From Pseudovirgaria hyperparasitica (Eukaryota), in NCBI GenBank assembly GCA_010093815.1, contig ML996582.1: a DNA stretch of 64,000 bases. One strand, 5' to 3'. Both the position numbers and the translations under genes were made by a program. Shown piece after piece: positions 21,093-59,137 of this stretch (positions are counted from its first letter, which is position 1; every line of letters begins with the position of its first letter). The notes below the pieces were generated by a model. The model had not been told where the DNA came from. It ran no database searches and saw nothing but the letters and a program-made list of their open reading frames with translations.

Positions 21093-21267
21093 TGTCCGGA
21101 CCTACTGTGTTCCATGAGCGCGAGCTTGAGGGCACGCCAACTCCTGGTCTTGTGCCTGATGATCGGGAGTGGCACTAGCGCACATCGTTATCGATAAGGT
21201 CTTGGCGTAATAAAAAAGTTTCAGACGGGAGCGTCCACAAACACGTATAACAACGCGAACTTCAGTA

Positions 21268-23546
21268 ATGGCGAGAGGCGGCGGAAAATCGCGGCCTAGC
21301 CTACAGAAGGGTCTCGATAATGAAGTGTACCACGTTGTCGACAAGTTTCTTGAGGACCAACCTCAAAGCATTGCCTCATTAAGATGCGGTCAAATCTACG
21401 ACCGGATACAGAAGTCAAACTCAAGCTTGAAGCGTCGCCCGAAGCCGGCACTTGAAAGCAGCATCGAGCGGGTTCTAGCTGTCATGATTGAAGAGTTCAG
21501 CGAGGAAGATGATGATATGGAGCCGCTGGAAGGGGAATTCGGTGATTCTAATCCTCAACCTAAGCCGAGTAAAACTGTCAATGATTTAATTACTGGAACT
21601 TGGAAGAACGCCTCGCCAGCCAAGAGTACGCCAGCAACCTCCATAAATGGAGAGAAGAAGTCGAAACGTGGAGACGGGGATCGAAAAGCCCATGACGAGC
21701 CACCGAAGAAAAGGCTCAAGAGCTCTCACACGGAGAAAGGTGCAAATATCGACATTAGTCCTCCCACGCACGTAAGTCTTGATGACATTGGCGGTGTTGA
21801 AGATATCAAGCGCGAATTGAAGCAGCATCTCGTTTTACCGTTGTTATGTCCGGAGGAGTACGCCGCTCGCAACCTACCGATCCCCAGAGGCATACTGCTG
21901 CATGGTCCTCCGGGTTGTGGAAAGACTGTGATCTCTAGGGCATTTGCCGCAAAGCTTGGCGTCCCGTTTATCGAGATATTGGGTCCGTCCGTTGTTTCCG
22001 GAATGTCAGGAGAGTCTGAGCGACAAGTCCGTGAGCATTTCGAGAAAGCCAAGGAAGTTGCACCATGTCTCATATTCATCGACGAAATCGATGTTATCGC
22101 GCCCAAAAGAGACACTGCCCAGAGTCAAATGGAAAAGCGTATTGTGGCACAGCTGCTGATCTCCATGGACTCGTTAGCGATGGAAGGCAATGACGGAAAG
22201 CCCGTGATTGTGCTAGCAGCAACGAATCGTCCTGATGCTATAGACCCAGCATTACGGAGAGGTGGTCGATTCGACTCGGAAATAAACATGGGTGTGCCGA
22301 ATGAAATCACACGAGGACAAATTCTCCGTGCTCTCACTAGAAATACCAACATCGCAGACGACGTCTCATATGAGATATTGGCGAAAAAGACCTCTGGCTT
22401 CGTAGGCGCTGACCTCCGGGACCTTGTCGGTAAAGCTGGCACATGGTCCATGGATCGTTATCGTGAAGCTCTGGAAGCACAGGCTGCAGCTACCGAAACT
22501 GACATGGATGTTGATCTTGATACGAAGAAGGCGGTCTCTGAGGTGGATCGAAGTATAACACGACTCATTCGTCGCTGTCGTGACAAAGACGCTACTCGGC
22601 CGGCGGGATTTGAGGACACTTCGATCACAATGGAAGCCTTCGATGCTGTCTTCCCAGGCATACAGCCGTCTTCCAAACGTGAAGGCTTCACCACTAGGCC
22701 CGATGCCAATTGGGATGACGTCGGGTCACTAGATGATGTACGTGAGGAGCTCAATATGGCGATAGTTGAACCGATCTTGAACGCGCAACGATACAAGAAC
22801 GTCGGTATCTCCGCTCCTACTGGAGTGCTCCTATGGGGACCCCCGGGCTGCGGAAAGACGCTTCTTGCTAAAGCGGTCGCGAATGCATCAGAAGCAGCCT
22901 TCATTAGTGTCAAGGGACCCGAGTTGCTTAACAAGGTAAGTCGCATCTCCCTTATTTTTGAATCTCTGTCAGCTAATGTATCTAGTTTGTTGGTGAGTCA
23001 GAAAGGGCAGTCAGGCAGGTTTTCATGCGCGCACGATCGTCCAGACCATGTGTGGTCTTTTTCGATGAGCTGGATGCTCTTGTTCCTCGTCGCAATGACG
23101 CACTGTCTGAAGCGTCTGCCAGGGTGGTCAACACCCTCCTGACGGAGCTGGATGGGTTGTCTGAGCGAGAAGGTATCTATGTGATTGGAGCTACCAATCG
23201 ACCTGACATTATTGACGATGCCATGCTTCGTCCCGGTCGTCTCGAAACCCTGCTATTCGTAGGTCTACCCAAGAAGCAGGATCGTGTTGCAATCCTGAGC
23301 GCCCTTATCAAGAAGACACCCATAGACCCGCTTCTAGCACATTTTGCAAGCGACGATCGCTGTAACAATTTCAGCGGTGCCGATCTATCAAGCTTGCTAC
23401 GAAAGGCCGGACAGTCGACTCTCAAGCGGGGCGCAGATAGAGTCGAGCTTCAAGACTTTGAAAGAGCAGTTGGAAACGTCCGGGCCAGCGTTGGTGATCC
23501 AATTCATTATGAGCGACTAAAGAAGAAGTTTGCCACACAGATATAA
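21268..23546 (+). CDS. RIX7: Type II AAA+ ATPase Rix7/NVL (60S biogenesis), 2 exons
   Basis: Two Walker A motifs (GPPGCGKT twice), Walker B FIDEID and [25 protein letters not shown]; intron 22936-22985. Confidence 0.9.
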
Positions 23547-26620: not shown

Positions 26621-28183
26621 TTACGCAAACGCCTTCTTTACTAGTAACCGACAATCTCTATCGGGATACTTCGGAGTAGTAAATAACGTACTCTTTGTCT
26701 CCATGATTTTCGGCCGGCCTAATTCATCTAAGTTCTTTGGCCCATACACTGTGTCTTCTGGTAGCTTTACATCATAGTCTTTAAGAAGGTTAGATAAGAT
26801 TACCATCATCTCCGACCATGCTAGGCTTTTCCCAATACAGTTGCGATGACCGTAAGAGAATGCAAAAACGTTTCTTTTAAGATCTTCGTTCGCTAAAAAG
26901 CGTGTTGGGTCATATATATGCGGGTCCTTCCAAGTCTCGGCATGGTTATGTGCGCCGATCAGGTTGATAGCTACCTCAATGCCTGGTGGAAGATAGAAAC
27001 CCTGGAGCATGACCCCACTCGTGTGAGATACCCGGGGCATGAATCCCGAGGTGATGGGTGAGTATCTCAAGGTTTCATATACGCATGCCTCGAGAAATGG
27101 CAGTTGGGTACGACACTCCGCGAATGTGACCATGTGGTCACGTTTAAACAGGCTTCGTACTTCATCCACGGCACGTGCGTGGTACGCTGGGTATAAAGTC
27201 AGTAGATGAATCACCCAGGAAGTAACGAAAGAGGTCGACTCGCTTCCAGCAAGCTGTAATGCGATGCTTTCGGTGCGCACTTCATGGCGCTGCATTTTGA
27301 TTTTAGAATCTGGGTCTTCTGCGTCTAGAAATGCCTGGAGAAGGTCTATAGGTCTCTCCTTCGCGCCGTTCAGAAGCTTTCTACGTCGAATGTCGATAGA
27401 CTCGTTGGAATGTCGGATGAAAGCATGAAACTGGGATCTAGACCGACGAAGAAGGCGAGAGAAAGGCCAATGGCCGAGAAGTGGGAGGTTCTTCGTCATG
27501 CCAAGGTAAAAGCCTGTTGCCTCGATCCAGCGAATTATGGTATCATCGTCATTTGAAAGAGCGCTAAAGTCGCGCCCAAAGGCGAGGGCACCAATCGTAT
27601 CGAATGTTGCGTATTGTGTATCATTTCGGTAATTCACAATGATGGGGTTGCCTTCGTTTTGATCGATTAACATGTCCCATTTATCTCGGATGGCTTGGAT
27701 ACTATGCCGGACAATGAGCGGCTCCATCTGATTAAGAAAGCCATGAGTAAGATACGGGCCAAGCTGGCGACGGCGAAGGCTTGCATAGATGGGATCGCGA
27801 GCTGTGAAGATGCTTGGGTGACCGAGAATGTCGAGCATTCTGTAAACATCCGTCTTCCGGAAGTCTTGAGATGTCAAGATCTTCTTGATATCTTGCGGGT
27901 GACTGATGCTGACTCCATCTGGTCGATGGACGTAAATGTCTCCATATGTTTCGTAGTCATTCTGAACAGACTGAGATCCATTGCTGAAAATACGTTTGAC
28001 TATAGAATGCTTCGCACTAAGGCGGGACAGGAAAGATCCTGGGATATTGCGCAATGGAGAGAAGAAACATTGATAGATAACTCTATAGGCGATGGCTACA
28101 GCGACGATATATGCGACGATGCAGGGAGGTTCGATTGCTTCTGGGAGGGAGAACAAGCCTTTTCGATCTACCATGGCGCTCAT
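26621..28183 (-). CDS. Cytochrome P450 #1 (fusidane/helB-type, CYP5081-like), intronless
   Basis: N-terminal TM anchor, LAGSEST I-helix, ETLR, YDPTRF, heme motif [10 protein letters not shown]. First ATG at 28183 (the ORF track starts at TTG 28204). Confidence 0.92.
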
Positions 28184-28769: not shown

Positions 28770-30227
28770 CTACCACACGAGCTCACCAACATTTTCCCAG
28801 AACGGATCTACCAACATTCCTTTCATAGCGGTAGGATTACTGCTCAGCAAAACGTTCACTCCGTCTGTTGATGGCATAGGCGGTAGGAATGCGACTATAC
28901 TGAGACTGCTAGCAAAAAGTGGCGTCAGGCTCACACATGCTGGAGATCTGTAGCTAAAATCAGCATCGTAAAGCTTGAAATTGACCTAACTTGTACACAC
29001 AAGGAATGTCCTCATGCGACTAGCGGTCAATGCTAAGGGTCGTAGGTAGCTTGTTGGATGCGCAGATATAAGCTCAACGAACTCGGATACTAGCTGAGGG
29101 CTGACGCTGGACACTGTAGACTGCACCTGGGCTGCTGCATCTGCTAAGGTAGCTGCATTCGTAGGTCTTCTGAGATCATTGACTTGATCTCTAATCAGTA
29201 GCCCAGTAAGACAATTTTCTGTATAATTCTCTTTGACATTCAGCCGGGATCTCAGGTCAAAAGGGACTCGTACTGATGCATGTTCCTCGACTTGAGGTGG
29301 GCCCCTAAGTCAAGTTCAGAATCTAGATTGTTGATTTGTTTTGAGCTGGTTCTGTATTGACAGCTTTCTGATAAGAGCAACTAGGATATCATTGTCACTG
29401 ATATGAGATGTGCCGAAAATAAGGTGAGGCTGAAGCATTTGATGTAACTCGTTGAGCTTTCTCTGCGAAACATGGAACAGGTGTGCTTCGCCTTTGGCGA
29501 GCCCAGTGGTTTTACTCAGCATAGCACCCAGTGTCGTATGGGATAGCAACGTTGACCAGTCGATGATTACATTAGGAGTGGAATATATGGCATGGCTCGT
29601 GGGATCGATCAATACTTGGCCGGATGTAGTTAGATACGAGCGGACTATGCTTCGATCGAAGGAGTATGTTCTGCGAATGGGTGGTACGGCACTGTGGACC
29701 ATTCCGTACATTGTGTCGGCCCAGGAATTGACGAATACGAAGAAATTCGCATCATCGAAGGCATAATGGAGAACACTGATGAACAGGACCAGGCCACTGT
29801 TCTCCTTGAGTCGAATGACATGAACATTGAGCATGTGGATCTCACTGTCACTAGCAGTAGTGGCAATGGGTCCGACTGTGACCACGCTCGGGGGCCAGCT
29901 GCTTTACGCAAAGCCTGCGGTCTTGAGATCTGCAAAGTGAATCGTGAATTAAACAAACTCCAGGAACTCCGGATGGTTGATGTTATCAGGATCTAGTTCG
30001 ATGAGTATGTTTCCAGTCACCTTATGACGCAAGTGGCCGAGTAGAATTGAAAAGGTCTCGAGGGTATTAGCCAGGGCTTTCTTCAGTTGCTCAGTCGGCA
30101 TGAAGTCTGTCACACTTGAAGTGTTCTCAAAGACGTATGCGCAGGGGATAGTTGAGAACGAGCCTTGCATGTCCAGCGCCGATAGGGGTCATGCTTGTGG
30201 CTTGATAGAGCTGATGTATTTCTTCAT
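28770..30227 (-). pseudogene. BAHD/transferase-family O-acyltransferase pseudogene (helD-like)
   Basis: One continuous frame of 486 codons from ATG 30227 to TAG 28770, with six internal stops (30189, 29949, 29904, 29316, 29310, 28986). LSALD, HYAFD (HxxxD), VPFDLRSRL and YDADFSYR (degenerate DFGxG) align by eye to the intact gene at 40665-42089. Confidence 0.88.
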
Positions 30228-30876: not shown

Positions 30877-33126
30877 TCACACAATCTCCACATCACCATA
30901 TCGTTTCACATACCGTCCTAGGGCCAAGAGAGTGAAATGAAACTTGTACAATGGATATCGCATGCCTCCTGGCGGGACAAAGACTCCTTCTAGAGTGCCT
31001 GGTAGCCAATCACCCATTGGCTGTTGAGCGTCCATCAAAAATTTGATGCCTTTAGCTACAGCCTCTTGGTCGGCGCATCCTGCCGCCAGCAATGCTATTG
31101 TAGAATAAGCTGTACACGTGACCTGGCTCCCCAACGGCTCCTGGACGTATCTCTTAACCTTTGTGCTCTCGATAGACTCTCCCCAGCCGCCATCGTCATT
31201 TTGATGCTCCAGTAAGAATCTGCAGGCTTGTCTCGTTGCAGCACAATTCTCTTCGGATCTTCCAACGCAAGCAAGACCTTGCAGGGCGAACATAGTCGCG
31301 TATGTGAAACACACTCCCCAGCTAGCATACCACCCGCCTTCTGGATATTGTGCCCGTAGCAAGAAAGCGACACCGCGATCTATACACTGTTGTATGTCAT
31401 GCGGCCGATATGATGGATAAGTCCGACTGAAAGCGGTCAGAGTCATGATGATCGAACTGGTACACTCTGGATATAACGTCTCGGTCATAACGTTGTCGTA
31501 TATCTCGGTGACGTTGAAAAGCTCCATAAAGCTTGGAGCCCGAATGGGTTCATACGATGAGAATCCACCACCACGGTTTTCCATGGCCATAATGAGGTCT
31601 ACCGCCTCTTTTAAGCGGCTATCGGAAATGCGTCTGCGTACCACGCCTGATTCCTGGAGTTGCATAACCACCTTCACAGCTTCAGCGGTCGTATCAGATA
31701 CTGCGTATCCTTGCTCGCGAGTGCTGAAACTCCAGGCTCCTTTTGTTGGTTGCCGATAAACATGGTCTATTGCCATTGGATCCTCGCGTATCTGAGAATT
31801 GTCTATGAACTCGAGAGCCTTCTCAAGAACAGCTTTGTTTTCGGGCTCCTTTGAAAGGTCACATTCGAGAACTGCCTGTACAGTCAAGACAGTGTCCCAA
31901 AGAGAAGTCCCGTTGGTTCCAGACGCTGACAGTCCTTCGCGGCACATCCACATGGGGTCTATGACGCGCGTCTGCATTCCTCTTACCCAATGGCTGCGAG
32001 GCCCATGAGCATGCCATAAAGATAACAGATTGGATGCGAAGCTAACCGGTGCAATGCTGAGATAGCTGGTGTTGTGGACTTCGGCTTCTATCTGAAAAAG
32101 CACCTCTTTTAGCGCTCTCCGCCGTATGAACGGGATCTTGTAGTGTTCAATCAGGCCTAAGATTCCAATTGCTGCTGAATGGAGTCGCGTCAAGGGCGCT
32201 AGACGATCATGAGAGCTTACATGCGTCCTCTGAGCGACCCAGTCCACGTTTTCATATGGTATCTCATGAATCTCCTGTCTTAGCTGTAGCACGAGCTCAT
32301 TTTGTGGCATCACCCAGCGATGGCCATACATATATGCCAAACTGACATACATGTTGCGAGTATGAACCCACCAATTACCCGGATTTAAGGGCAAAGCCTG
32401 AGGGACTAAGAGGACTTCTGCGACCAGTGGTATCATGCCATCCCATTCATACAGTCCGAGGACACACAACCACCACTTTCCAAAGGCAGGGATTGCTAAT
32501 GCACCTCCCATAGTCTTTAGACAACTTCGAGCCTTTTCCAAGACAGGGTGAATTGCTGGTAGTCCCAAGATTCGCAGCATGATATAGCTCATAGTTGTTC
32601 CGAATACTGTCGAAGGACTTTGGATGAACAATCCCCATCCGCCATCGGCATTGACCATATTCAACAAGTACCGACACATCTCAGCCTTCATAAAGTCTTC
32701 CAATGGCAAGCCAATGATATACATGGTGATCACAATTCCACTGGTAACGAAGAGCGGCCCGTCATCATTGCATCCCCAATGGCCATCCGAAGTCTGGAGC
32801 CGTTTCAGAAACTCCCAGCCGTGCGCCAGAGCTTGCTTCGGTCGCTTCGATGTTTTCATTTTTGGCATTTCGATGGGGAGACCAAGCCAGTACCGTTCTA
32901 GGAAGCTCTGTGGCTGGGTCTCACATTCCTCTTTTGAGCTCAAGTAGTGCCACACATGCCTACCATGCTCTACCTTGAGTCTCCATTGATCAAGGTTTGT
33001 TGCGTAGGGTCGTGCCGCAGCGGTATTCTCAAATACAGTACTGCTACAGACCTTCTGTGCGACGCTTGTTTGAACGGGGGTTTTGATCCCAGTCACAAAC
33101 GTCGAATCATCATGAGCTGTCTTCAT
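30877..33126 (-). CDS. Oxidosqualene cyclase, protostadienol-synthase type (helA/fusA-like), intronless, 749 aa
   Basis: QW repeats (QTSDGHW, NADGGWG, QYPEGGW, QNDDGGWGE, QQPMGDW), WGVCFTY, catalytic SDTTAE, and C-terminal GVFVPPGGMRY. Confidence 0.93.
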   Translation of the reverse strand: MKTAHDDSTFVTGIKTPVQTSVAQKVCSSTVFENTAAARPYATNLDQWRLKVEHGRHVWHYLSSKEECETQPQSFLERYWLGLPIEMPKMKTSKRPKQALAHGWEFLKRLQTSDGHWGCNDDGPLFVTSGIVITMYIIGLPLEDFMKAEMCRYLLNMVNADGGWGLFIQSPSTVFGTTMSYIMLRILGLPAIHPVLEKARSCLKTMGGALAIPAFGKWWLCVLGLYEWDGMIPLVAEVLLVPQALPLNPGNWWVHTRNMYVSLAYMYGHRWVMPQNELVLQLRQEIHEIPYENVDWVAQRTHVSSHDRLAPLTRLHSAAIGILGLIEHYKIPFIRRRALKEVLFQIEAEVHNTSYLSIAPVSFASNLLSLWHAHGPRSHWVRGMQTRVIDPMWMCREGLSASGTNGTSLWDTVLTVQAVLECDLSKEPENKAVLEKALEFIDNSQIREDPMAIDHVYRQPTKGAWSFSTREQGYAVSDTTAEAVKVVMQLQESGVVRRRISDSRLKEAVDLIMAMENRGGGFSSYEPIRAPSFMELFNVTEIYDNVMTETLYPECTSSIIMTLTAFSRTYPSYRPHDIQQCIDRGVAFLLRAQYPEGGWYASWGVCFTYATMFALQGLACVGRSEENCAATRQACRFLLEHQNDDGGWGESIESTKVKRYVQEPLGSQVTCTAYSTIALLAAGCADQEAVAKGIKFLMDAQQPMGDWLPGTLEGVFVPPGGMRYPLYKFHFTLLALGRYVKRYGDVEIV

Positions 33127-33674
33127 CTTTGATCCTTGGAATAGATGTCGAATATTAGTCTCGTATATCGACCAAGCTTGAGACTTCGAGTGTTTCTAGC
33201 GACGATTGGATGAAAGCACGAGGGGCTTCGGGTCGTCTAAATCATGAGTTACTCACGGGTCTGATATTTGAGGTTAAAATTTCTAGTATCATACAAATCG
33301 GCTCATTTGATGGTTTCGTTAATTACATATGAAACGTACCTGATCTTCCACAACGCTTTTAGATCAGAATGTTAGCTTGGAATCAAGCCCGAACTCGACC
33401 GGACCCACAGCGACATGAATACCCTACGTCCGTCAAGGCCAAAGCGTTCCAGTCACTAACGTCTCGTACTACATGGATGGGGGCTAGTTGCGCTTATAGC
33501 CTTATCACAACGTCGATTGCTCGGCTGTATGCAAAATGAGGTTGCATGACGCTAATGCAGCACACGGCACAACAGAAAGAGGACCTGAAAGTTACTAATT
33601 CTGCATTTCAACGACTAGGATACGAATGTAATACATGCCAATTCACTACCATGTTGATGTCTTCTTGCCGCTAC

Positions 33675-35333
33675 TCACTCATCGTTGACACGATCCTTCC
33701 GCTTTTGCAATATCATCCGACAGTCTCTCTCCGGCTTCGCAGGCATTGTCGCTACCCCCAGCTTCGTCGGCATGATTCTCGGTCGTCCTGTCCTAGGATC
33801 TTTGTTATGCGGGCCGAAGACACTGTCCTTCGGCAACTTGATATCGTAATCGCGGAAAAGATTCGCTATTGTGACCATCATTACGACCCACGCGAGGTTC
33901 CGCCCAATGCAGAATCTCGTACCATAAGCGAAAGAAAGCATGTTGCGCTTCGTCTCGAAGTTGTTCAAAAACCGGGTTGGGTCGAATTTGTCTGGATCCT
34001 GCCACGTAGTGGCGTGTACGTGAGCTGCGCATTTGTTGGTTGCTATCTCGGTCCCAGGCGGGATATAGAATCCCTTGATGGTGATACCCTTGGTATCTGA
34101 AACTCTTGGAAACGAAGTGCTTGTGGTCGGAATACAGCGGAGGGTCTCATAAATGACACACTCCAGATACGGTAACAGTTCCCTGCATTGCTGGTATGTG
34201 ATGACGGTCTTCATGTCGGGAAAGCCAGCGCGGACTTCGTCACGGACGCGGTCGAAATGCTCGGGGTAAAGCAACAGAAAGTGTATGATCCACGAAATGA
34301 CAGAAGAAGTTGACTCACTGCCACCAACAAGCATTGCAATACTTTCAGCCTGAACTTCTTCTGGTGACATATGTGTCTTGCCTGGAACGTCGAGATCTCT
34401 TGCATCCAGCAAGGCCTGAAGCAAATCAGCAGGTATGTCGCCTCCATTATGAATCTCTTCTTGGCGAATCGCCACGGACTCCTTGCTGAACTGTACGAGG
34501 TCGTCGTACGAGCCCTTCAGCTTCCATACTAGAGCTGAAAATGGCTTTCGTTTGATGAATGGAAAGTAATGAGAAAGTAGCATGTAAGTAAGAGTGTTGT
34601 TCACCCATTTGGTGTAGACTAGGTTGTCCTCCTGTAAGGCGTGAAAGTCTCTCCCGAAGGCCAGAGCTCCGGTAATGTCGAACATGGCCAGTTGTGTATC
34701 AGAACGATAGTTGATAATAGTATCCTCGCCGCGGACTTCGTTGTTTGTAATCAGGGTGTCCCATCTGGTTCGTAACGCTTTGCTCCCATATTTCAATATC
34801 AGATGTTCCATGCCCGCTAGATAGCTAACCGTGAAAAAGGGATGCAACTGGCTTCTTCTCTGATTAGCCTGTGCGGGATCTGTGAACGTGCTGACATTGG
34901 GAATCCCCTCATATTCGAACACCCGATACATGTCCGTCTTCCGGAACTCCGTGTTTGACAGGACTACCCGCGCGTCCTTTGGATCGCAGATAGAGACAGT
35001 ATTCGGTTTTGACAGATACACATCACCGTGCTGTTTGTAATCCGATATTGATGCTGCTTCAGCCCGACCGGTGAGCAAGTGTATCATTATACGGCTGCTT
35101 GTCACTCGAGCGAGAAATGGAGCTGGGATATGTCGAAGTGGGGAGCGAAAAAATGCATAATAGAGCGTCCAGACAGTTTGAACTGCGAATAGGATCAAGG
35201 TGATGCGTGTGTATCCCAGGCTGACGACATATGACTTTATTTCCAGGAGAACTTCGACTAGAAGATATTGCCGTATCCTACCATCTGAGGGGACCAAGTT
35301 TTCAGAAGCAAGTATATGGTCCATTGTAGACAT
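33675..35333 (-). CDS. Cytochrome P450 #2 (fusidane/helB-type), intronless
   Basis: VGGSEST, ETLR, FDPTRF, FAYGTRFCIG; paralogous to the other three P450s. Confidence 0.92.
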   Translation of the reverse strand: MSTMDHILASENLVPSDGRIRQYLLVEVLLEIKSYVVSLGYTRITLILFAVQTVWTLYYAFFRSPLRHIPAPFLARVTSSRIMIHLLTGRAEAASISDYKQHGDVYLSKPNTVSICDPKDARVVLSNTEFRKTDMYRVFEYEGIPNVSTFTDPAQANQRRSQLHPFFTVSYLAGMEHLILKYGSKALRTRWDTLITNNEVRGEDTIINYRSDTQLAMFDITGALAFGRDFHALQEDNLVYTKWVNNTLTYMLLSHYFPFIKRKPFSALVWKLKGSYDDLVQFSKESVAIRQEEIHNGGDIPADLLQALLDARDLDVPGKTHMSPEEVQAESIAMLVGGSESTSSVISWIIHFLLLYPEHFDRVRDEVRAGFPDMKTVITYQQCRELLPYLECVIYETLRCIPTTSTSFPRVSDTKGITIKGFYIPPGTEIATNKCAAHVHATTWQDPDKFDPTRFLNNFETKRNMLSFAYGTRFCIGRNLAWVVMMVTIANLFRDYDIKLPKDSVFGPHNKDPRTGRPRIMPTKLGVATMPAKPERDCRMILQKRKDRVNDE

Positions 35334-36042: not shown

Positions 36043-36861
36043 ATGCCAGAGTCAATATCTCCAGCATTTACCAGGCGAATAGCCATAGTCACTGGGGCAG
36101 CCCGTGGAGTCGGCTTCGCAATCAGCAAAGCTCTCGCATTGAAAGGCTACCTAGTCGTCATCAGCGATATCGATAGCATTGAAGGTACTCACGCGACAAA
36201 GAGCCTCAATGAAACAATGGGCGCCGGTACTGCTGTATTCATTCATTGTGACCTGGCTCGACTTTCTTCCATCGATAAGCTCCTTGAGTCGACTGTCCAG
36301 CAACTTGGGAGCTACAGTCTGCTTGTCAATAACGCTGGCTATCTACGAGCGCCTTTCCTCGCACTGTCGGCAGAGCATATGGAGCAGAGCATATCGGTGA
36401 ATTTAACTGCACCACTATACGCGTTGCAGCGTGCCGTTATGTACTGGAACGCGCATCCTCATATCGAGGCTCCTGCCGTCGTTACAGTGACATCGTCCTC
36501 ATCATTCAAGACCTATGCGTCCATTCTCCCATACGGCGCTGCAAAAGCTGGCGCTGCACAGTTTACATTTGCCAGTAGGGACTTTGGGCCAAGGATCAGA
36601 GTCACAGCTGTGGCCCCGACGGCCATCGCGACCGGATTTGAGCTGGGAAATATGAGGATTGCTACGGAGCAAGAAGGTCCTGGGTACACACCGGAAGATG
36701 CGATGAGAGCCATGGGATTGGAACGATTGAGTCCAGAGGACGTGGCCAATGAAGTCGTGAGATGTGCAGAGGATAAGGATATTTGGGGAATTGTTGTGCA
36801 TCTAGATAAGGCGAAAGGTGCGAAGATTTTCGGGGGGTATGAGGATTTCATGGGCGTGTGA
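36043..36861 (+). CDS. Short-chain dehydrogenase/reductase (helC-like 3-hydroxysteroid dehydrogenase/C4-decarboxylase candidate)
   Basis: TGAARGVG Rossmann motif, LVNNAG, catalytic Ser and YGAAK. The helC-like role is inferred from cluster context. Confidence 0.9.
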   Translation: MPESISPAFTRRIAIVTGAARGVGFAISKALALKGYLVVISDIDSIEGTHATKSLNETMGAGTAVFIHCDLARLSSIDKLLESTVQQLGSYSLLVNNAGYLRAPFLALSAEHMEQSISVNLTAPLYALQRAVMYWNAHPHIEAPAVVTVTSSSSFKTYASILPYGAAKAGAAQFTFASRDFGPRIRVTAVAPTAIATGFELGNMRIATEQEGPGYTPEDAMRAMGLERLSPEDVANEVVRCAEDKDIWGIVVHLDKAKGAKIFGGYEDFMGV

Positions 36862-36914: not shown

Positions 36915-38492
36915 TCATATACACTGGCGCTTTCTTATAAGTATACGGCAGTCTCTCTCCGGATACTTAGGAGCAAAAACAATATGACACTTTGACGGCA
37001 TTAACGCAGGCTCCCCATTATCTCTCCTCCCGTGCGGGCGAAAAGCTTCACTACCGTTCCCAATTCCTTCCATATCAAATTCGTTTAGTAGGTTAGCAAG
37101 GATTGGCAATATTTCCATCCATGCAAGATTCCTCCCCAAGCAGTTCCTTACTCCATATGAAAATGCAAAGACATATCTCTTCTTATCTGTGTCTTCTAGA
37201 AATCGTTCTGGTCGAAACTTGTTGGGTTCAGCCCAAACATCAGTTCGATTGTTTAAAGCAATCAGATTAAAGGCAATATGCGTTCCCGCCGGAACGAGGT
37301 ACCCTTGCAATACGACGTCTGTAGACGCAAACTGAGGCATAAACCCTGATGTTATCGGAGTGTAGCGAAACATCTCATATATGAAGGCCTCGAGAAATTC
37401 AAGAACTCGACATTCAGTGTAACTGATTAAATGGCCCTTGGCGAATCGCGAGCGTACTTCTGTCTCAGCACGCGCTCGATAGTGAGGGTATAGTGTGAAC
37501 AGATGTAGTGCCCATGTCAGTGCCGCAGCGGTAGTCTCGCTTCCGGCGAGCTGCATGCCGAGGCTCTCAGCTTGGACTTCTTTGGCGGTCATAACGATTT
37601 TCGACTCCGGGTCTTGCGCTTTGATGAATGCCTGCAGCATGTCTTCTGGGACCTGTAATGCTTCGGCTTGATGCTTCTCAGGCGAGACTTGTTTATCGAG
37701 GAGTTGCTTCCGCCGTTTGACACTCTCTGCGGAGTATGCAAGAAAGTCCGCGTAGGCTGTCAGCGACGGACGAAGAAGGATAGAAAGGGGAAATTTAAGT
37801 AGCAGTGGAAAATTCATCCGTAGACCGACATATACTGCAGTTGATGAAATCCACCCAATGATGCGTGAGTCAGCAGACTCTAGGCTATCATCTCCTGTAG
37901 ATCTTCCAAACGCCAGTGTAGCCATGATCGAGAAAGTCGCGAGTTGAGTATCGTTACGGTAGTTCACAACCGCGGTATCCCTTCCATCTAGGAGACTGTG
38001 CCACTTCGATCCAATGGCTTTGGCGCCTTTTTGAAGAATAATTGACTCCATCCGGAGTAGGTAGCTACTAGTGAAATATGGGGCAAGTTGACGACGACGA
38101 CGACTTGCCATTGCTGGGTCACTGAAAGTAACGATGTTTGCTAGAGCCGGGTCGTGGACACCGTGATACATATCGATTTTGCGGAAAATAGACGAGCCTA
38201 GTACTGTGCGCACATCTTGCGGGTTGCATATTGTGATCGTATTAGGCTTGGAAATATATATATCTCCATAGGTGTTAAAGTCGTGAAGAGCGGCATCGAT
38301 CACTCGGGATGGAAGTCGCTGATATATTGCTCGAAGCGGTGTGAGTCGTGCTAGGAGTGGGCCTGGGATGTTCCGCAGACTTGAGAACAGCGTCACGTAT
38401 AAAACGTAGTAGCTAGACAACATGCAGACCCCAAGACCGAACGCCACCAAGGAGTCGGTCTGGTAGATTTTCAGAAATACAGTCTGGAGCAT
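36915..38492 (-). CDS. Cytochrome P450 #3 (fusidane/helB-type), intronless
   Basis: LAGSETT, EMFR, FRPERF, FSYGVRNCLG. Confidence 0.92.
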   Translation of the reverse strand: MLQTVFLKIYQTDSLVAFGLGVCMLSSYYVLYVTLFSSLRNIPGPLLARLTPLRAIYQRLPSRVIDAALHDFNTYGDIYISKPNTITICNPQDVRTVLGSSIFRKIDMYHGVHDPALANIVTFSDPAMASRRRRQLAPYFTSSYLLRMESIILQKGAKAIGSKWHSLLDGRDTAVVNYRNDTQLATFSIMATLAFGRSTGDDSLESADSRIIGWISSTAVYVGLRMNFPLLLKFPLSILLRPSLTAYADFLAYSAESVKRRKQLLDKQVSPEKHQAEALQVPEDMLQAFIKAQDPESKIVMTAKEVQAESLGMQLAGSETTAAALTWALHLFTLYPHYRARAETEVRSRFAKGHLISYTECRVLEFLEAFIYEMFRYTPITSGFMPQFASTDVVLQGYLVPAGTHIAFNLIALNNRTDVWAEPNKFRPERFLEDTDKKRYVFAFSYGVRNCLGRNLAWMEILPILANLLNEFDMEGIGNGSEAFRPHGRRDNGEPALMPSKCHIVFAPKYPERDCRILIRKRQCI

Positions 38493-39083: not shown

Positions 39084-40607
39084 ATGTGGCAATACACTCT
39101 ATCCGGTTTTGTTATCTTCTTCATATTCACAATCTACCGGTTGATTTACGCTTTGTACTTTTCCCCTCTACGCACCATCCCCGGCCCTCTAATCGCCCGA
39201 GTCACCTCAAAGCGCGGCAAGATTGATCAGTTTTCTGGCAACGTATCCGTACGAGCTATACTCGATGAGCAGAAATATGGGGAGGTGTACGTTTACAAAC
39301 CCAATGCTGTCTGCATCAACCATCCGGAAGACATCAAATCTGTGCTCGGTTCTCAAGATTTTTTGAAGACCGGCTTCTTCGACATCTTTAACGACGGTTG
39401 TGTTCGAAATGTTGTCTCGATGCGTGATCCTATCCTCTCGAGTCAGCGGAGACGACAGATTGGACCTTATTTCAACTTCTGGCAGCTGGCGAAGATGGAA
39501 GATCTCATTCTACGACACGGGTACAAAGCGCTAAAGACCAAATGGGACGGCCTGATGGAGATGAATGCGTCTGGACAGACTGAAGTCAACTATCGTATTG
39601 ACACCCAGCTTGTTACTTTCGATATCATGTCTGCCGTTGCATTCGGACGAGATTTCGGATCCATTCGAAAAGGCAGCTCCTCTGTTCTGAAGTGGGCCGG
39701 TGTCATTATGTCTCTACTCGACTCTTCCTTTGTTCTGGCATTGCTCTCTTTATTGCCATTCTCACTCGTTATGAGGCCTTGGAAAACAATGTACCACGAA
39801 CTCGCAGTCTACAGTGATGAGTGTATACAAGACCGCAAATCACTGCTTGTTATCAAGGATAACAAGAAGCCCATGGATATGCTTCAAGCTTTTATTGACG
39901 CCGAAGATCCTGAGTCCCGAGCAAAGATGACACCACTTGAGGTTCAAGCCGAAAGTATCATGATGATGCTCGCAGGCTCGGAGACAACAAGCAGCGCAAT
40001 AATGTGGACGTTCCATCTGCTACTGCTTCACCCTTTTATATTAGCCACTGCAGTGCGCGAGATCCGCACCACATTTCCTAGTGCTCGACCATACACCATT
40101 ACCTTCAAAGATGTGCAGATAAAGCTTCCATACACCGAGGCTTGTATCTATGAGGCATTGCGTCACTCACCTACTACTGCTGGGCTGACGCCTCGGATAT
40201 CGTATACACGATCCATAACATTGCATAGTGGGCATATCATACCACCAAATACTGAGATATATGTGAATTTACGGTCGCCTAACATGCATGAGACTTTATG
40301 GTCGGAACCTCAAAGGTTTAATCCAGATCGATTTCTCGAAACAGACTCAAAGAAGAGTTTATTTACGTTCTCGTACGGACCACGGAATTGTATCGGGAAG
40401 AACTTGGCATGGGTCGAGATGCTGACGATCATTGCGAATGTATTGAAAGATTATGACATCTTCCTGCCGGATGGTAATATGTTTGGACCACACAATGTAG
40501 ACGAAAATGGATTTCCGAGGCTTCTACCGGCCAAATGCTTCATTGCGAGTTTCCCGTCTAACCCAGAGAGAGATTGCAAGATGATTGTACGAAAACATTG
40601 CGAGTGA
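39084..40607 (+). CDS. Cytochrome P450 #4 (fusidane/helB-type), intronless
   Basis: LAGSETT, EALR, FNPDRF, FSYGPRNCIG. Confidence 0.92.
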   Translation: MWQYTLSGFVIFFIFTIYRLIYALYFSPLRTIPGPLIARVTSKRGKIDQFSGNVSVRAILDEQKYGEVYVYKPNAVCINHPEDIKSVLGSQDFLKTGFFDIFNDGCVRNVVSMRDPILSSQRRRQIGPYFNFWQLAKMEDLILRHGYKALKTKWDGLMEMNASGQTEVNYRIDTQLVTFDIMSAVAFGRDFGSIRKGSSSVLKWAGVIMSLLDSSFVLALLSLLPFSLVMRPWKTMYHELAVYSDECIQDRKSLLVIKDNKKPMDMLQAFIDAEDPESRAKMTPLEVQAESIMMMLAGSETTSSAIMWTFHLLLLHPFILATAVREIRTTFPSARPYTITFKDVQIKLPYTEACIYEALRHSPTTAGLTPRISYTRSITLHSGHIIPPNTEIYVNLRSPNMHETLWSEPQRFNPDRFLETDSKKSLFTFSYGPRNCIGKNLAWVEMLTIIANVLKDYDIFLPDGNMFGPHNVDENGFPRLLPAKCFIASFPSNPERDCKMIVRKHCE

Positions 40608-40664: not shown

Positions 40665-42089
40665 TCAATACACTAATTCGATACATTCACTGAAGTCACT
40701 ATTCCCTAAAAGCTGCTGCATTACCCACGGACGTAAAGTCAAAAACACATCAATATCGCCGTTTGCTTCTGGTCGGCTCGGCATGATAACGGCGACTGTG
40801 TTGCTATACGCCATTGGTGCTATAAATTCTGGCCTACCATTCCCGAAGTCTGTATCGTAATAGCCAAGGCGTGTTTGGTTGCTGAAAGCTTGACAAACCA
40901 TTGATGCGTACAAAACGTTTGCCCGGTGACCAAGAAGCGTGATTACACGCAATGCTCGTTTCAAAAAGGTCTCTATGCTCGCCTGTGACACCTCTGTCAC
41001 AGTATTCCGAGAGATGAGTGCCACCTCTGCGATAGGTTGTACCGCTTTAGCGGAGATCGGGAGGCGGAGAAGAGACGTTGGCGCAGTGACGTATAATCCA
41101 ATCGCACAACTCCCAGAGTATCTCTCTGGGACCTTTAGGCGGTGTCGAAAGTCGCAAGGCACGATTGCTGACAAGGACTCGGGCGGTGAAGACTTAACAC
41201 TAGGGGGGTAAGAGCTCTGGAAGAAAGCCATTGTGAACAGGGAGACAATCACGTCATTGGAAGACACCTTCGTGCCGAGCGATAAAGTAGCGGCTTCATG
41301 CTGTACACCCTCAATGAAGGATCGTTTGACTCGGAAGAGATGGCTCTCTAACACGGCAGCCGAGTCCTGTTTCTTCGAAAATAGAACGAAAACTTCGAGT
41401 AAGCAGCGAAGCAAGAGTGACAGCCCTGCTACCATGTATGTCATAAGGTTCCATGGTTCTCTGGCAGGCGGTTGTAGGTCGGCTCGAAGCCTCTCGTACA
41501 TGAAGCGTCGACTTAGCAACGGTAGGTGGTAGCGTCGCGGGTCATGCGATGGAAGCCGTTTTGAACACTCATTTGCCCAGTCCTGATAAAACTGGTCACA
41601 GCCTTTTGCGTCAAATACGCAATGTGCAATGCGAATTCTAATGACAACGCCACTGTTTTCCGCCAGGCGTACAATGAGGACTTCTAAAAGCTTCGAGTAC
41701 GATGCGATGGTGGTTCCTGATGAGTTGACACGAGGATCCTGGACATTGATGCCATTGGGCCAGGAATCACGATGGAATGAGGCTTCGCGGATCTCACAGA
41801 ACTTGGTGGAGCTACCAGTTTCCTCAAATGATGGCAAGTTCAGGTCAGATGGGTCAACAATGATGCTTATTGATGTCCCACTGCGCATGGCTCGCCCAAC
41901 AAGAATTGGAAATCTCCAAAGTGAGGCGTAGAGAGAAGCCTCCAGCCGCAGTCTAGGCATGAAGTCTATGTTTGATGCATCATTATTTGCATAGAAAAAG
42001 ACATTGGAAATGTAGAGGTGACTTGGAATGATATCCAGAGGTGAAAGCTCATACTTTGCTGGCTCGAGGTAGTTCAAAGTGGAATCCAT
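40665..42089 (-). CDS. BAHD/transferase-family O-acetyltransferase (helD-like), intact, intronless
   Basis: LSPLD, HCVFD (HxxxD), DTDFGNG (DFGxG). First ATG at 42089 (MDSTLNY). Confidence 0.88.
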   Translation of the reverse strand: MDSTLNYLEPAKYELSPLDIIPSHLYISNVFFYANNDASNIDFMPRLRLEASLYASLWRFPILVGRAMRSGTSISIIVDPSDLNLPSFEETGSSTKFCEIREASFHRDSWPNGINVQDPRVNSSGTTIASYSKLLEVLIVRLAENSGVVIRIRIAHCVFDAKGCDQFYQDWANECSKRLPSHDPRRYHLPLLSRRFMYERLRADLQPPAREPWNLMTYMVAGLSLLLRCLLEVFVLFSKKQDSAAVLESHLFRVKRSFIEGVQHEAATLSLGTKVSSNDVIVSLFTMAFFQSSYPPSVKSSPPESLSAIVPCDFRHRLKVPERYSGSCAIGLYVTAPTSLLRLPISAKAVQPIAEVALISRNTVTEVSQASIETFLKRALRVITLLGHRANVLYASMVCQAFSNQTRLGYYDTDFGNGRPEFIAPMAYSNTVAVIMPSRPEANGDIDVFLTLRPWVMQQLLGNSDFSECIELVY

Positions 42090-42699
42090 CCTTGCTTTCG
42101 AGTTAAAGAAGCCCAAGCCGTGTGTTTTCCGTACTCAAACTTCCAGTGTCTGGATATAGAAGTACGCAGAGGGATTCATCGGCACCGAACTTAACTTCTG
42201 AGTTATGATCATTATTAGTCAATGAAACGGGCTTTGGTAATGAAAAACACTATATACCATCTAGTCTGTGTGTGACAGACAGCCTGCTTCATGAAAAGGA
42301 CCGACCTTATAGAACAAGTGGTGTCAGCAGCGAGGCTCGCGCGGACTCTACTAGAGACGCGTGTGAATACCAGCGCTAATGCAAGGGTCTCGTATGGATT
42401 CGATATAGCCCAGGTGTCTAGCCCTTAGGGCCTCAGGCGGTTCCCCTGCAGTGTAAAGGTCACAGCGTATCACACTCCTGGGTGCGATCGCGTTTACTAT
42501 ACAGCATCGGTCTGCAGCCAGGAGCAAAGCCGTCATTCGGCTGATACGGCTGGAGTATGTTATACAACAAGCATGCGTCTAATATGCAGTCACATCAATT
42601 CTTAACAAGGAGCGAGATCCCGAATTCGAAGGACATACCACTTTCACCCAGCAAGGCAGTCGGACCGATGTCTATTCTCCACCAGACGAAAGACTACGC

Positions 42700-44378
42700 A
42701 CACCGACGTTGATAAAGAGGTCGACGTTCTTATCATCGGGAGTGGGGCAACAGGCCTTACGGCAGCGTTACGATGTAATAATGAGCGTGGACTAGATACA
42801 ATGGTCGCATAAAAAATGTCCAAGATTGGAGGGACAACTACATACCCTGGTGGTGAGCTTTGGGTCCCAAACAACCATCCTCGCCAAGCTGCCAGAGTCG
42901 TTAATTCTTACGAAAATGCGTTTCAGTATCTGGAAGCCATCATCGATGATGTTGGACCTACATCCTCTTGTACAAGGAAGGAGGCATTCTTAAAGGCAGG
43001 ACCTACTATGGTTGGAAGCCATCGGGTTCAAATGAAACCTTTCACTTGGCAGTTCAGACTCTTATCCAGACAAGCCAGGAGCCCTTGTCATTGAGCGAGC
43101 TATTGAGCCAAAGATATTCGACGAGAAGAAACTGGGTGTCTGGAGGAAACGCCCGAATAGGCCCCCTGGAAGAGCAAGACCGCCTCTCTATACAAGTGAA
43201 GGCAGCAAGGCACTTCTCTCCGTGGCAACATGGGGTGGTAATTTCCAACTACTTCGCATAATAGCAAGATGGATCGGGCGAAAGTTGCTCGGTCAGAACC
43301 AGTCACTATGGGCTTGAGTCTAATCGCACAGCTGCTAGTCATTAGTATCCGGCGTGTCATTAGTCTAAGAACAGGAATGGCGTTGGTTAGACTTCTCAGG
43401 AATTCTAACACCAACACCTCAGACGGTGCAGTGCTAGAGCAGTCTGGTAGAGAGCTGATTATACGCACAAGGAAGAGTGTAATACTTGCTGTAGGTGGCT
43501 TTGCGTACAACAAAGACATGCGTGCCACATACCAGCCGTTTTTCCAAGCGTCGAATGAACGTCCGTCCCTAAGAGCGATACAGGTGACGCTATAAGAGCG
43601 GGAATGAACATTGGCGGGGCACTCGCACTTATGGATGAAGCTTGGTGGGACCAACAATGATCGATCCAGCCAGCGGCCTACGGGTTTTTCATCTTGTTTG
43701 GAAGAGCCAGGCCGCATTTAATCATCGTCGACTCGAGCGTCGAGCGTTTCATGAACGAAGCACAAAGCTATATTTACGCTGGTCACGAGTGATACAGACG
43801 GCATAGAGAATGTGGCAACAAGGTGAAAGCTATCCCTGTTTGGATAATCGTCGACTCGCAATTCATAAGAGAAGTACCCCTTAGGACGATTGATGGCAGG
43901 TTCGTCCTTAAAGAGGGCTATCGACACGGGTTTTCTTTTTGAAGGGAGGACTATCTTAGAACTAGCACAAATTGTTGGTGTGAACGTCCCAGGACTCAAT
44001 GCGACCATTCTACGGTTCAACCAGATGGCGCGACATGGGAAAGACCTAGACCATAATCGAGGCGGTAATGCTTATGACCGACAGTTTGGAGATCCGCTCT
44101 GCAAGCCAATTCCCAACCTGGGCACGATCGAGAGTGCACCATTTTTTGCGCTCAAGATCTTTCCTGGTGATCTAGGCACGAAAGGCGGTCTGTTAACGAA
44201 CGGACATGGCCAAGTTCTTAACGAAAATGGCGACAAGATCTAAGGACTTTACGCTGCGGGCAATTCCTCTTCTTCTGTCATTGGTAGGACTTATGCGGGC
44301 GTAGCCTCAACTCTCGCACTGGCTATGACATTTGCTTTCCTGGCAGCCGAGCACATGTCTGGCGCTAATCAGGCTTAA
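42700..44378 (+). pseudogene. 3-ketosteroid-delta1-dehydrogenase (FAD-dependent, helE/KstD-like) pseudogene
   Basis: DVLIIGSGATGLTAA, stop in place of E in (E)K at ~42810, IGGTTTYPGGELWVPNN, RKSVILAVGGF, LMDEAWW/PT (frameshift ~43650), IIVDSS-ERFMNEAQSY, PGDLGTKGGLLT, stop at 44241 before GLYAAGN, natural stop at 44378. The start is uncertain. Confidence 0.88.
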
Positions 44379-44462
44379 GATGTAGAAAGCAGAAGTATGC
44401 TGTAGTTCTAGCCATGGAGAGTCTAACGCGACTATTGCCCATGTTGTAAGGCCGTGTAGGTT

Positions 44463-45137
44463 TGCATGCTCTTTTATATAGTAGATATATATGAGATTGA
44501 TAAATGTTAATTTTTCTAGTTCATTATCTATGAGTTTACTATCTATAAGAAGTATTTATAAAGTCTCTTTAAGGAGATAGAGAAGGATTTCGAGATACTA
44601 TGGAAGTTTCTATAAGATGATTTATATAAAAAAATACGTTAGGACTTAGAGATACAAACGTTCTCTCTCTACTCTCTCTTTTCTTGAAAATTCAATTTTT
44701 TTATCATAGACTGTAGTAATCAGTTCAGAGCTCAAGAAGTACATCATGATATATAGATTCAATATGAGGTAGAGATATTTCATAAACCTCTATAACGGGT
44801 GAGCAATCGTGTGTGAAAACAGAAAGACGCCAAGAGAGTTAGGTTCCACCTACAGGCTGTTCTATCTTCTATATTGTTGAAAATCCTTCTCTATCTTCTT
44901 AAAGAAACTTTATAAATACTACTAACGGATAATAAACTTATAGATAATCAACTTAGAGATAATCAACTCATAGATAATAAGCTCATAGATAATCGACTCG
45001 TAGATAATCAACTCAAAGACAATCAACTCATAGATAATCAACTTATAAATAATGAAATCATAGAAGGATTAATAATAATCTATTCCATATATATCTACTT
45101 CTATATATCCTTATATGTAAGTATAGAGAGCTGCAGA
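44463..45137. mobile_element. AT-rich foldback/MITE-like relic with long inverted arms and 15-bp tandem repeats, at right border of the cluster
   Basis: 44519-44606 is an imperfect reverse complement of 44866-44952; outer segments ~44463-44518 and ~45055-45137 also pair. Tandem atagataatcaactc units at ~44940-45050. Confidence 0.7.
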
Positions 45138-46282
45138 TAGAAATTTGGGGAGGGATTTACAGCGTCGGTAGTATATAGCGGCTAAAGACGAAGGCGCACG
45201 TAAGTCGGTTTTACATACGAAGTGCTAACTTAAATAAGTAACGATACCATGCAAGAGAGATAAGTACAAAATGAACATGGCGTTCCATAACAACACACCC
45301 AAATTCGTACTGGTAACAAAGGAGATGACATCTAGTAAGACAATTTGTGGACCACATACTAGCAGGACACATTGGACACGACCAAATAGGCACTTGTAAG
45401 CTGTGCCATACCCCTCTAGCTATTTACAGGTTTTGCCTTGAACTAACTAACTTGACTCAGCTAGCCTCTGCTAACTGATCTATGATGACTGAAGCGCCGG
45501 AGCCTTCGGCTATGCAACATGCAAATCACAGTTTCACATCGCATTGTGGTCACTGCAGTACCATACAGCTTCTGAGTGCTACATCATCCCTGTGAAATGG
45601 ATCTCTACTAACTTCATACCGAATCACTGCTCGATGAAATGATATAAAGTCACGGATCCAACTCGCCTGCACGGTGGTGGGTCCATTGACATCCGCCCGT
45701 ACTTAGCGAAGGCAGCTTCCGTCTGCCCAAGCAGCAAGCTTTGGGCATAAGTAGTGCGCGTTCGACAGATATCATGCCAGGTGAGCACTTAAGTAAACCA
45801 CTCATGATAAGAAGACACTAAAATATCTCTACCATAGGGAACTTCTGCCATATCATGGGGGTAAGACCTATACAAGCATTTCAACGCGGAGCCGCCCGCC
45901 GGAACGGGCCGGGGGGGGGGGGGGGGCAGTTGGTAATCTTCCGGGTCCCTTGCCACTTACTATTAGCCTTACAAGTAGATACCTGGTTCGTGCGTCAATT
46001 AGACCATAGGCTAGCGTCTTTTCGCATCTAACTTTTCCTTGAATGGGAAGTGCATACTGCGCATAGATACTGGCTGGATAGATACGTTTCCTTTACACCA
46101 GAGTCTTGTACATCCTTTAAATACGTACGTGATCAGAATGCTATTGTATCTAGAACACCTTCCACAGCCGATCATCTTTAAAGAACTATTGTGCCTTAGA
46201 CAGTCAGACTTCGGGCTACTCTTGTTGAGCTGTACAAGTACGTGGTTAATATTGGACCTCTACGTGAATAGCATCCAACAGC

Positions 46283-50508: not shown

Positions 50509-51444
50509 TCACACGTGTTTGAATTTCGAATACAGCCACAAGACCGTGGCTACGCTACCTGTTGCCAGAAGCATGTTCAAGCCGACAAGGATATTTCTTG
50601 CACGGCCAAAGCTCTTCATTACGTTTTGGAACTCCTTCGTATCATTGACCCGTGGAAATGGAATCTTCTCCCCTTTTTCATTCAACGGCAACGGCTTGCC
50701 TAGAAACTTGCATAGCGGCTCCCAACCCTCTTTCACATTCATCTCCAGAAAGCGCTCCGGGGTGTCCTTCACAATATCATATACAGCCTCCTTATGCTCT
50801 CGATATGATGCCGCGCCGCGCTCCGGATTGAAGTCAAGAAACTTGCGCATATCGCCATGCAGGGCAATCTTCTCATTCAGCGTCTGAGTTGGTAGATCTG
50901 GTAAGAAAAACTGGTAAATTCGCGCCCATAGCGATGTGCCTGGTAGCATCATTCTTGTCAACGGTACTAATGTGTTCTGCACACTCGCGTACCATTGTTC
51001 CGGACTATCGCGCGTTGTGAGGATGATCTTGGCGTCGGGATATGCGGCGGCAAGTTCAGGCATGAAGAATATGGTGGGCGTATCTGTCGTCGCCATGCAA
51101 TGACCTAGCAATTGGTCCCAGTCGGCACGTGTGTAGGGTTTACCTGTAGCCTCGTATTTGGCAGCTAGCGCTTCACACCACATGGCGGCTTCGGAGGTGT
51201 TTTGATCGCGCATGATGTTCCGCACTGGAAGATGTCAGTTCGGATCATTGATAGAGTGAGTAGTGGTAAATAGCATACTATGATATGTGTCTTTGTAACC
51301 CAAGATCTCCAAGGCTTCGCGCAGGCTCGAGGTGCCCGTTCTGCTTGCGCCGAAGCCAAGCACCTGCAATGGCACTTGACGAGTGCATTCTCGTCTGTTC
51401 TCTCCTCTTGATGGTGCAATTGCTTTGAGAATGATACTCGCCAT
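50509..51444 (-). CDS. P-loop sulfotransferase-like protein (Sulfotransfer_4 / 'NAD-dependent epimerase'-annotated family), 2 exons
   Basis: VLGFGASRTGTSSLREALEILGYKDTYH / intron ~51226-51277 / AYPDAKIILTTRD...WYAS, EGWEPLCKFLG, PFPRVND; C-terminal hydrophobic anchor. Confidence 0.8.
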
Positions 51445-59052: not shown

Positions 59053-59137
59053 TGCGAGTTGGGATGCAATTGCAGTAGTAGTGACCGGAAGGACGGCAAG
59101 TCAAAGGGAAGAATTAGGAATCTGTAGAGGTAGGTAC

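Follow-up and report, generated by a model that had tools for sequence, protein, structure and literature searches.

The 64,000-nt stretch of Pseudovirgaria hyperparasitica DNA analyzed here (assembly GCA_010093815.1, contig ML996582.1; below, the window) carries an oxidosqualene cyclase gene. We asked whether its product is the lanosterol synthase (ERG7) of the organism or, as a preliminary description made from the DNA letters had proposed, a protostadienol synthase of secondary metabolism, and what the surrounding genes would make of its product.

The cyclase gene and its relatives

The cyclase and the features of it discussed below are as follows.

30877..33126, minus strand: helA-like oxidosqualene cyclase (predicted protostadienol synthase), a single open frame of 749 amino acids (aa) with zero internal stops
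30958-30981, minus strand: F716-VPPGGMR723 motif (aa 716-723), with the V717 codon at 30976-30978
31681-31698, minus strand: SDTTAE (aa 477-482) with the catalytic D478, equivalent to human D455
32473..32484, minus strand: aromatic swap F215 and W218, F215 being equivalent to human W192
32350..32352, minus strand: M259, equivalent to human V236

The 749-aa protein has what is expected of an oxidosqualene cyclase: both squalene-cyclase domains (PF13249 and PF13243), five QW-type repeats and the catalytic aspartate. It scores above the cut-off of TIGR01787 and under that of TIGR03463 (851). Both motifs lie exactly where the preliminary description had put them, and a six-frame translation of the window contains each a single time. 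In an alignment to human lanosterol synthase (1W6K), FVPPGGMR falls on F696-S703 (F716 on F696) and SDTTAE on D455-C456; because these are the expected places, the motifs are not chance matches. An AlphaFold model from a 40-row alignment has a mean pLDDT of 90.1, with low values in the motif loop (pLDDT 58).

Of 8000 candidates scored in a search for homologues, 298 proteins were retained, and 120 of these, query included, were listed (119 matches). Among the matches listed, the top cyclases are HelA-type (63-66% identity), whereas ERG7-type proteins reach 38-44%. Identity to Aspergillus fumigatus HelA is 63%; we take as HelA an A. fumigatus protein labelled "hypothetical" (P0004), because its F701-APPGGMR708 agrees with the Phe701 of HelA named in PMC3901436. 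A 31-row cyclase tree (29 of the 119 matches, the query and the ERG7 of this genome) places the query within the HelA clade with support of 100/99, distant from ERG7, and a 65-row FastTree gives the same nesting. The AU test rejects a constraint tree that joins the query with the four ERG7 rows (p-AU 2.6e-8). The genome has one other cyclase (G000:C15:712323-714438, at least two exons), which is 40% identical to the window enzyme, carries DCTSE and FNKS, and groups with ERG7; its closest match among those listed is a Microthyrium protein (67%). The window cyclase has neither the clade membership nor the NKS-type loop of an ERG7.

From these comparisons the window cyclase almost certainly belongs to the HelA clade and, by extension from HelA, protostadienol is very probably its main product. 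The proposal of a protostadienol synthase is thus borne out by homology, by the trees, by the separate ERG7 that the preliminary description had anticipated elsewhere in the genome, and by the hel-type cluster described below; clustering with ERG7, which would have spoken against it, was not seen.

The HelA pattern of a Phe701-type residue followed by an xxPGGMR loop is present as F716-VPPGGMR, with Val as the first loop residue. Residue 717 is Ala in 24/24 listed PGGMR-type relatives, so the A-to-V change singled out earlier is a true departure, though Thr (16 members) or Val (1 member) is normal in a listed sister subclade; the next site varies freely among the listed relatives (Ser, Pro, Cys, Ala, Asn). 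The companion claim, that DTTAE marks a special active site, held only as to its presence. Among the matches listed, HelA and altogether 22 of the 24 PGGMR-type relatives have its Thr, as do 12 of the 17 sister subclade members and also 2 of the 14 ascomycete ERG7-type proteins; DTTAE is the usual form in the clade, and we rejected it as a distinguishing sign. As for the loop itself, the swap made by Kimura et al. in 2010 reportedly gave lanosterol and parkeol at about 1:1, not lanosterol alone. Cordyceps CfaOSC2, which carries ACPGGMR, is described in PMC8227516 as giving protostadienol and its 13(17) isomer at 95:5. A literature search found no paper with two of the terms APPGGMR, NKSCAIS and protostadienol.

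The sister subclade comprises 17 of the 119 listed matches, all fungal and inside the HelA clade, and carries YTPPCGYR at the loop (P0009, P0011, P0012, P0014, P0025, P0028-P0030, P0032-P0034, P0036, P0039, P0045, P0049, P0053 and P0054). Its genera include Emydomyces, Lepidopterella, Hortaea, Chaetomium, Coniochaeta and Astrocystis, and its members show the changes His232-to-Pro, Asn382-to-Asp and Phe696-to-Tyr (human numbering). To judge from these residues, the YTPPCGYR enzymes likely make another product; in a literature search, PPCGYR occurred in none of the papers listed. The query is sister to this subclade with support of 96/97 in the 31-row tree and 99 in the FastTree.

A hel-type gene cluster with two pseudogenes

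Nine genes at 26.6-44.4 kb of the window are the nine hel types described for helvolic acid biosynthesis by Lv et al. 2017 (PMC5696383): a cyclase, four P450s (B1-B4), a short-chain dehydrogenase/reductase (SDR), two acyltransferases and a delta-1-dehydrogenase of 3-ketosteroids (KSTD). The eight that accompany the cyclase are listed here.

26621..28183, minus strand: HelB4-like P450 (C-21 oxidation), 520 aa, intact, assigned by the P450 tree
28770..30227, minus strand: HelD1-like acyltransferase pseudogene with six in-frame stops and zero frameshifts, its HxxxDG reading HYAFDD
33675..35333, minus strand: HelB3-like P450 (C-6/C-7 dual oxidation), 552 aa, intact, in the HelB3 clade with 100% SH-aLRT
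36043..36861, plus strand: classical SDR, 272 aa, intact (TGxxxGxG, NNAG, YxxxK), HelC/FusC2-like by type and position
36915..38492, minus strand: HelB2-like P450 (C-16 hydroxylation), intact, on a long branch of the P450 tree
39084..40607, plus strand: HelB1-like P450 (C-4 methyl oxidation), 507 aa, intact, assigned by the P450 tree
40665..42089, minus strand: HelD2-like 16-O-acetyltransferase, 474 aa, intact, matching named HelD2 proteins
42666..44378, plus strand: HelE-like KSTD pseudogene with several stops and with frame changes, two detected by tblastn and a further two on visual inspection

Seven frames are open with catalytic motifs intact. In a 97-row P450 tree (93 of the 119 listed matches and the four window proteins), the window P450s fall one each in the HelB1, HelB2, HelB3 and HelB4 clades, and their heme and K-helix motifs are intact. 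The six core fusidane genes (A, B1, B2, B4, D2 and C) are all found, C putatively as the classical SDR within the cluster; FusC2, the HelC homologue, is described as a classical SDR and FusC1 as not one (PMC6437595). For finer placement of the SDR, the atlas and NCBIfam gave nothing beyond "classical SDR." The gene order is B4, D1 (dead), A, B3, C, B2, B1, D2, E (dead) in the window, as against A, B1, B2, C, B3, D1, B4, D2, E in the published hel cluster. The fus cluster for fusidic acid, as presented in PMC6437595, has the six core genes in common with the window; no FusB1-type gene and no extended-SDR FusC1-type gene was seen in the window, which instead has genes of HelB3, HelD1 and HelE type.

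GC and GC3 of the cluster are those of neighboring genes, so composition gives no sign of recent transfer. Horizontal spread of the fusidane pathway has been published (Li et al. 2020), and Patellaria atrata, a Dothideomycete, already has such fusidane-type genes among the matches listed. Among those matches, Kickxellomycotina (Coemansia, Martensiomyces) supply the outside relatives nearest to the cyclase, the P450s and the transferases. Calcarisporiella thermophila has adjacent locus tags (4065-4071) for cluster homologues and forms the first branch in several clades. A metagenome scan for sister clusters, in which 80 loci were retained out of 521 relatives, gave a best segment of at most 38% identity and none of HelA type. 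The GC3 of the ERG7 exon is 0.89, against 0.47-0.66 for the window genes, a gap that points to strongly different GC compartments in this genome.

At the right border of the cluster lies an AT-rich (30% GC) degenerate repeat at 44450-45150, of which 44556-44591 matches another contig. Two kilobases past the cluster lies an FAD-binding oxidoreductase (PF01565; 46283-47803, plus strand), for which NCBIfam gave no family above cut-off; it presumably resembles delta-24-sterol reductases and could act on a C24 double bond. The sulfotransferase-like (50509-51234), tyrosinase (55197-56474), methyltransferase (58156-59100), sugar transporter (61433-62929) and AAA ATPase (21214-23546) genes of the window showed no link to the cluster.

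A complete hel cluster needs helD1 and helE intact; here both are broken, and helB3 is intact. The dead transferase groups at 100 with A. fumigatus and Nemania transferases, outside the HelD2 clade, and by elimination it would be HelD1-like; a search of the genome turned up no second copy. The helE remnant matches KSTD models. Elsewhere in the genome, a KSTD-like open frame of 634 aa at G000:C6:590201-590566 is a helE paralogue (54% identity over 121 aa).

Several ways of restoring the helD1 frame or explaining its decay were rejected. The six stops comprise three different stop codons, and only one of them aligns with a conserved Trp, the others with Ser or Gln; these facts, and the unchanged letters of the contigs, speak against A-to-I editing and against a changed genetic code. 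In the 410-aa model that is publicly available (P0271), four stretches holding all six stops are passed over, and databases therefore show the pseudogene as a gene. We rejected these stretches as introns: intact relatives have sequence there, part of it conserved, and no contig shows the joints. RIP was rejected as the cause of decay, the indices of the dead genes being like those of live genes. A literature search of titles and abstract starts found none on a cluster without helD1 and helE.

Contigs of four sequencing runs (X1-X4) bear on these breaks. DNA contigs of runs X1 and X2, which may be the source of the assembly, match the window at every letter, the helE breaks included. Contigs from a second sample (X3 and X4) span the helD1 pseudogene end to end with no differences and keep all six stops. 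X3 contigs also cover helB4, the dead transferase, helA together with helB3, the SDR, helB2 and helB1; they end near gene ends and include one GT..AG skip, features of a single study that faintly suggest transcript assemblies. Cover of helD2 and helE by X3 and X4 is little or none, which is evidence neither way. The skip is as follows.

34433..34499, plus strand: 67-nt GT..AG skip in one X3 contig, antisense to helB3, a probable antisense intron

Two bases are also missing from that contig at 35256, within helB3; given this deletion and the antisense-type splice, the contig is no proof of sense helB3 expression. Plus-strand transcription from the promoter region of helA (33126-33675) would account for the skip.

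Divergence of the cyclase and its pocket

To compare the cyclase with HelA (AfuOSC3) of A. fumigatus, we used 51 positions, picked by reference to pocket and motif residues of human OSC and transferred with the 1W6K alignment. The query equals HelA at 46 of the 51, the exceptions being F215, M259, S524, V717 and L726. Its closest known counterpart is HelA, with FusA and CfaOSC2; in common with HelA it has the clade, DTTAE, the pre-motif Phe and PPGGMR. It differs from HelA by W-to-F 215, F-to-W 218, V-to-M 259, A-to-S 524, A-to-V 717 and N-to-L 726, by a longer branch and by its position next to the YTPPCGYR subclade.

Position 215, Phe in the query, is Trp in 118/118 other listed cyclases with a residue there, and position 218, Trp in the query, is Phe in 102/119. 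W215F and F218W thus form a reciprocal swap, which required four base changes and looks compensatory. At position 259 the query has Met, a residue found in none of 118 others listed (Val 100, Ile 18). The equivalents of 215 and 259 in human OSC, W192 and V236, are ligand contacts in the dockings of PMC8911567. The change at 215 is larger than the A-to-V change, and neither it nor V-to-M 259 had been part of the preliminary description. A literature search for SHC W169 mutants found nothing.

The divergence extends beyond the pocket. Of 334 columns with 90% or more conservation across the PGGMR group, 42 differ in the query, against 0-17 for members left out singly; the comparison is biased, since the set contains no close relative of the query. 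It is the most divergent PGGMR-type enzyme among those whose sequences were compared. Where 29 columns separate the PGGMR group from the sister subclade, it follows the former at 20 and the latter at 4.

We also applied a crude constraint test, which counts changes at columns invariant in the other rows per end branch, using only rows whose end branch was 0.12 or more. Of 267 columns that are invariant in 21 other HelA-type rows, 23 are changed in the cyclase, and its rate of 0.195 exceeds that of 12/12 comparison rows (maximum 0.176; sister subclade left out). The rows that equal or exceed the window value number 6/12 for B1, 3/16 for B2, 3/4 for B3, 10/13 for B4, 11/17 for D2 and 3/11 for the ERG7 of this genome, whose branch is also long (0.35-0.44); the HelD1-like pseudogene exceeds 15/15 rows. 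With ordinary rates in the tailoring genes and the top rate in the cyclase, it is the cyclase, not the tailoring set, that is the outlier, and this lowers our confidence in its function.

Predicted pathway, alternatives and significance

If the mechanism of HelA carries over, Asp478 would protonate the epoxide of 2,3-oxidosqualene and the chain would fold chair-boat-chair to the C-20 protosteryl cation, stabilized by Phe716. The F-x-PPGGMR loop would then favor loss of H-17 over rearrangement and yield mainly protosta-17(20)Z,24-dien-3beta-ol. HelB1-, HelB2-, HelD2-, HelB4- and HelC-like enzymes would convert this to the fusidane core, compound 14, and HelB3 would add the 6-hydroxy-7-oxo groups to give compound 17. 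Since HelD1 and HelE are dead, the pathway would halt there, with no 6-O-acetyl group and no C1-C2 double bond. A precedent is the A. oryzae strain AO17, which carries helA, B1, C, B2, D2, B4 and B3 and made compound 17 and also compound 18, its 3-hydroxy form (Lv et al. 2017, PMC5696383). The MICs against Staphylococcus aureus in that report are 1 ug/mL for 17, 16 for its 6-O-acetate (compound 20) and 2 for helvolic acid; the MIC of 18 is 32. AO17 has the same intact gene types as the window; it was engineered from A. fumigatus genes, whereas the window shows natural loss and divergent enzymes. What the fungus makes is therefore probably an intermediate already known, not helvolic acid. On balance we lean toward a HelA-type protostadienol synthase that works within a shortened pathway, and give a slightly better than even chance to an active cluster that ends at compound 17 or its 3-hydroxy form. 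Counted against a working synthase are the lost Trp215, the sister relationship to an uncharacterized subclade rather than to tested HelA enzymes, and the death of two of the nine genes.

Another reading is decay of the whole cluster, with the cyclase changes reflecting relaxed selection on a weak or dead enzyme. Two of nine genes are pseudogenes, the cyclase has 23 of 267 invariant columns changed at the top rate per branch in its set, and one helB3 contig combines an antisense-type splice with a 2-nt deletion. We nevertheless consider general decay unlikely: the other seven frames are fully open with their motifs intact, while the dead genes have accumulated six stops in one case and stops with frameshifts in the other; constraint on HelB1-B4 and HelD2 is ordinary; the ERG7 branch of this genome is long as well; and W215F is paired with F218W in what looks like compensation. 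The changes might instead mean that the pocket is repacked (F215, W218, M259, S524, V717) for a different product or ratio, for instance a larger share of the 13(17)-ene or some other protostane, a reading that we find rather doubtful. Of similarly low probability is a further step, in which such a cyclase is a living intermediate between HelA and the YTPPCGYR subclade and its seven-gene cluster leads to an undescribed fusidane-like antibiotic. In favor of repacking, W192 and V236 are the docking contacts mentioned above, Val/Thr 717 and Leu 726 are found also in the sister subclade, the grouping with which has support of 96/97 and 99, and in other cyclases a single change at the neighboring Phe position reshapes the product, according to PMC10246894. 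Yet F716, H255, D121, N405 and PPGGMR are all HelA-type, and the query is sister-like at only 4 of 29 diagnostic columns, while long branches may be what joins it to that subclade. Moreover, the downstream enzymes, which take protostadienol-derived substrates in strict order as described in PMC5696383, are still constrained.

It is very improbable that helvolic acid or a delta-1 compound is still made, with other genes or RNA editing replacing the dead ones. The open KSTD paralogue at G000:C6 could stand in for HelE, and X3 and X4 contigs do span the dead transferase end to end; but these contigs keep all six stops, of which one in six lies at a conserved Trp, the genome yielded no other HelD1-like gene, and in AO17 the A. 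oryzae host enzymes supplied neither step (PMC5696383). The possibility that the cyclase is itself the lanosterol synthase is negligible. It shares with ERG7, human OSC included, the fold, the QW repeats and the catalytic Asp, but the AU test, the true ERG7 elsewhere in the genome and the cluster context all stand against it, as do the replacement of human Y98 by Asp and of the NKS loop by VPPGGMR, about 40% identity and a separate clade with another C-terminal loop.

The kind of enzyme and the pathway are already known, and the novelty is modest: it lies in the pocket changes and in the fact that helD1 and helE were lost naturally. As antibacterials, fusidanes are of use, and protostadienol synthases tested so far are few. 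As a natural mutant at otherwise fixed pocket sites, the cyclase offers a cheap test of what holds the protosteryl cation back from rearrangement. In the cluster, the final two tailoring steps appear to have been lost in nature. HelD1 6-O-acetylation lowers activity against S. aureus, as the MICs of 17 and 20 indicate, so joint loss of helE and helD1 may keep potency, and one might speculate that selection favored it.
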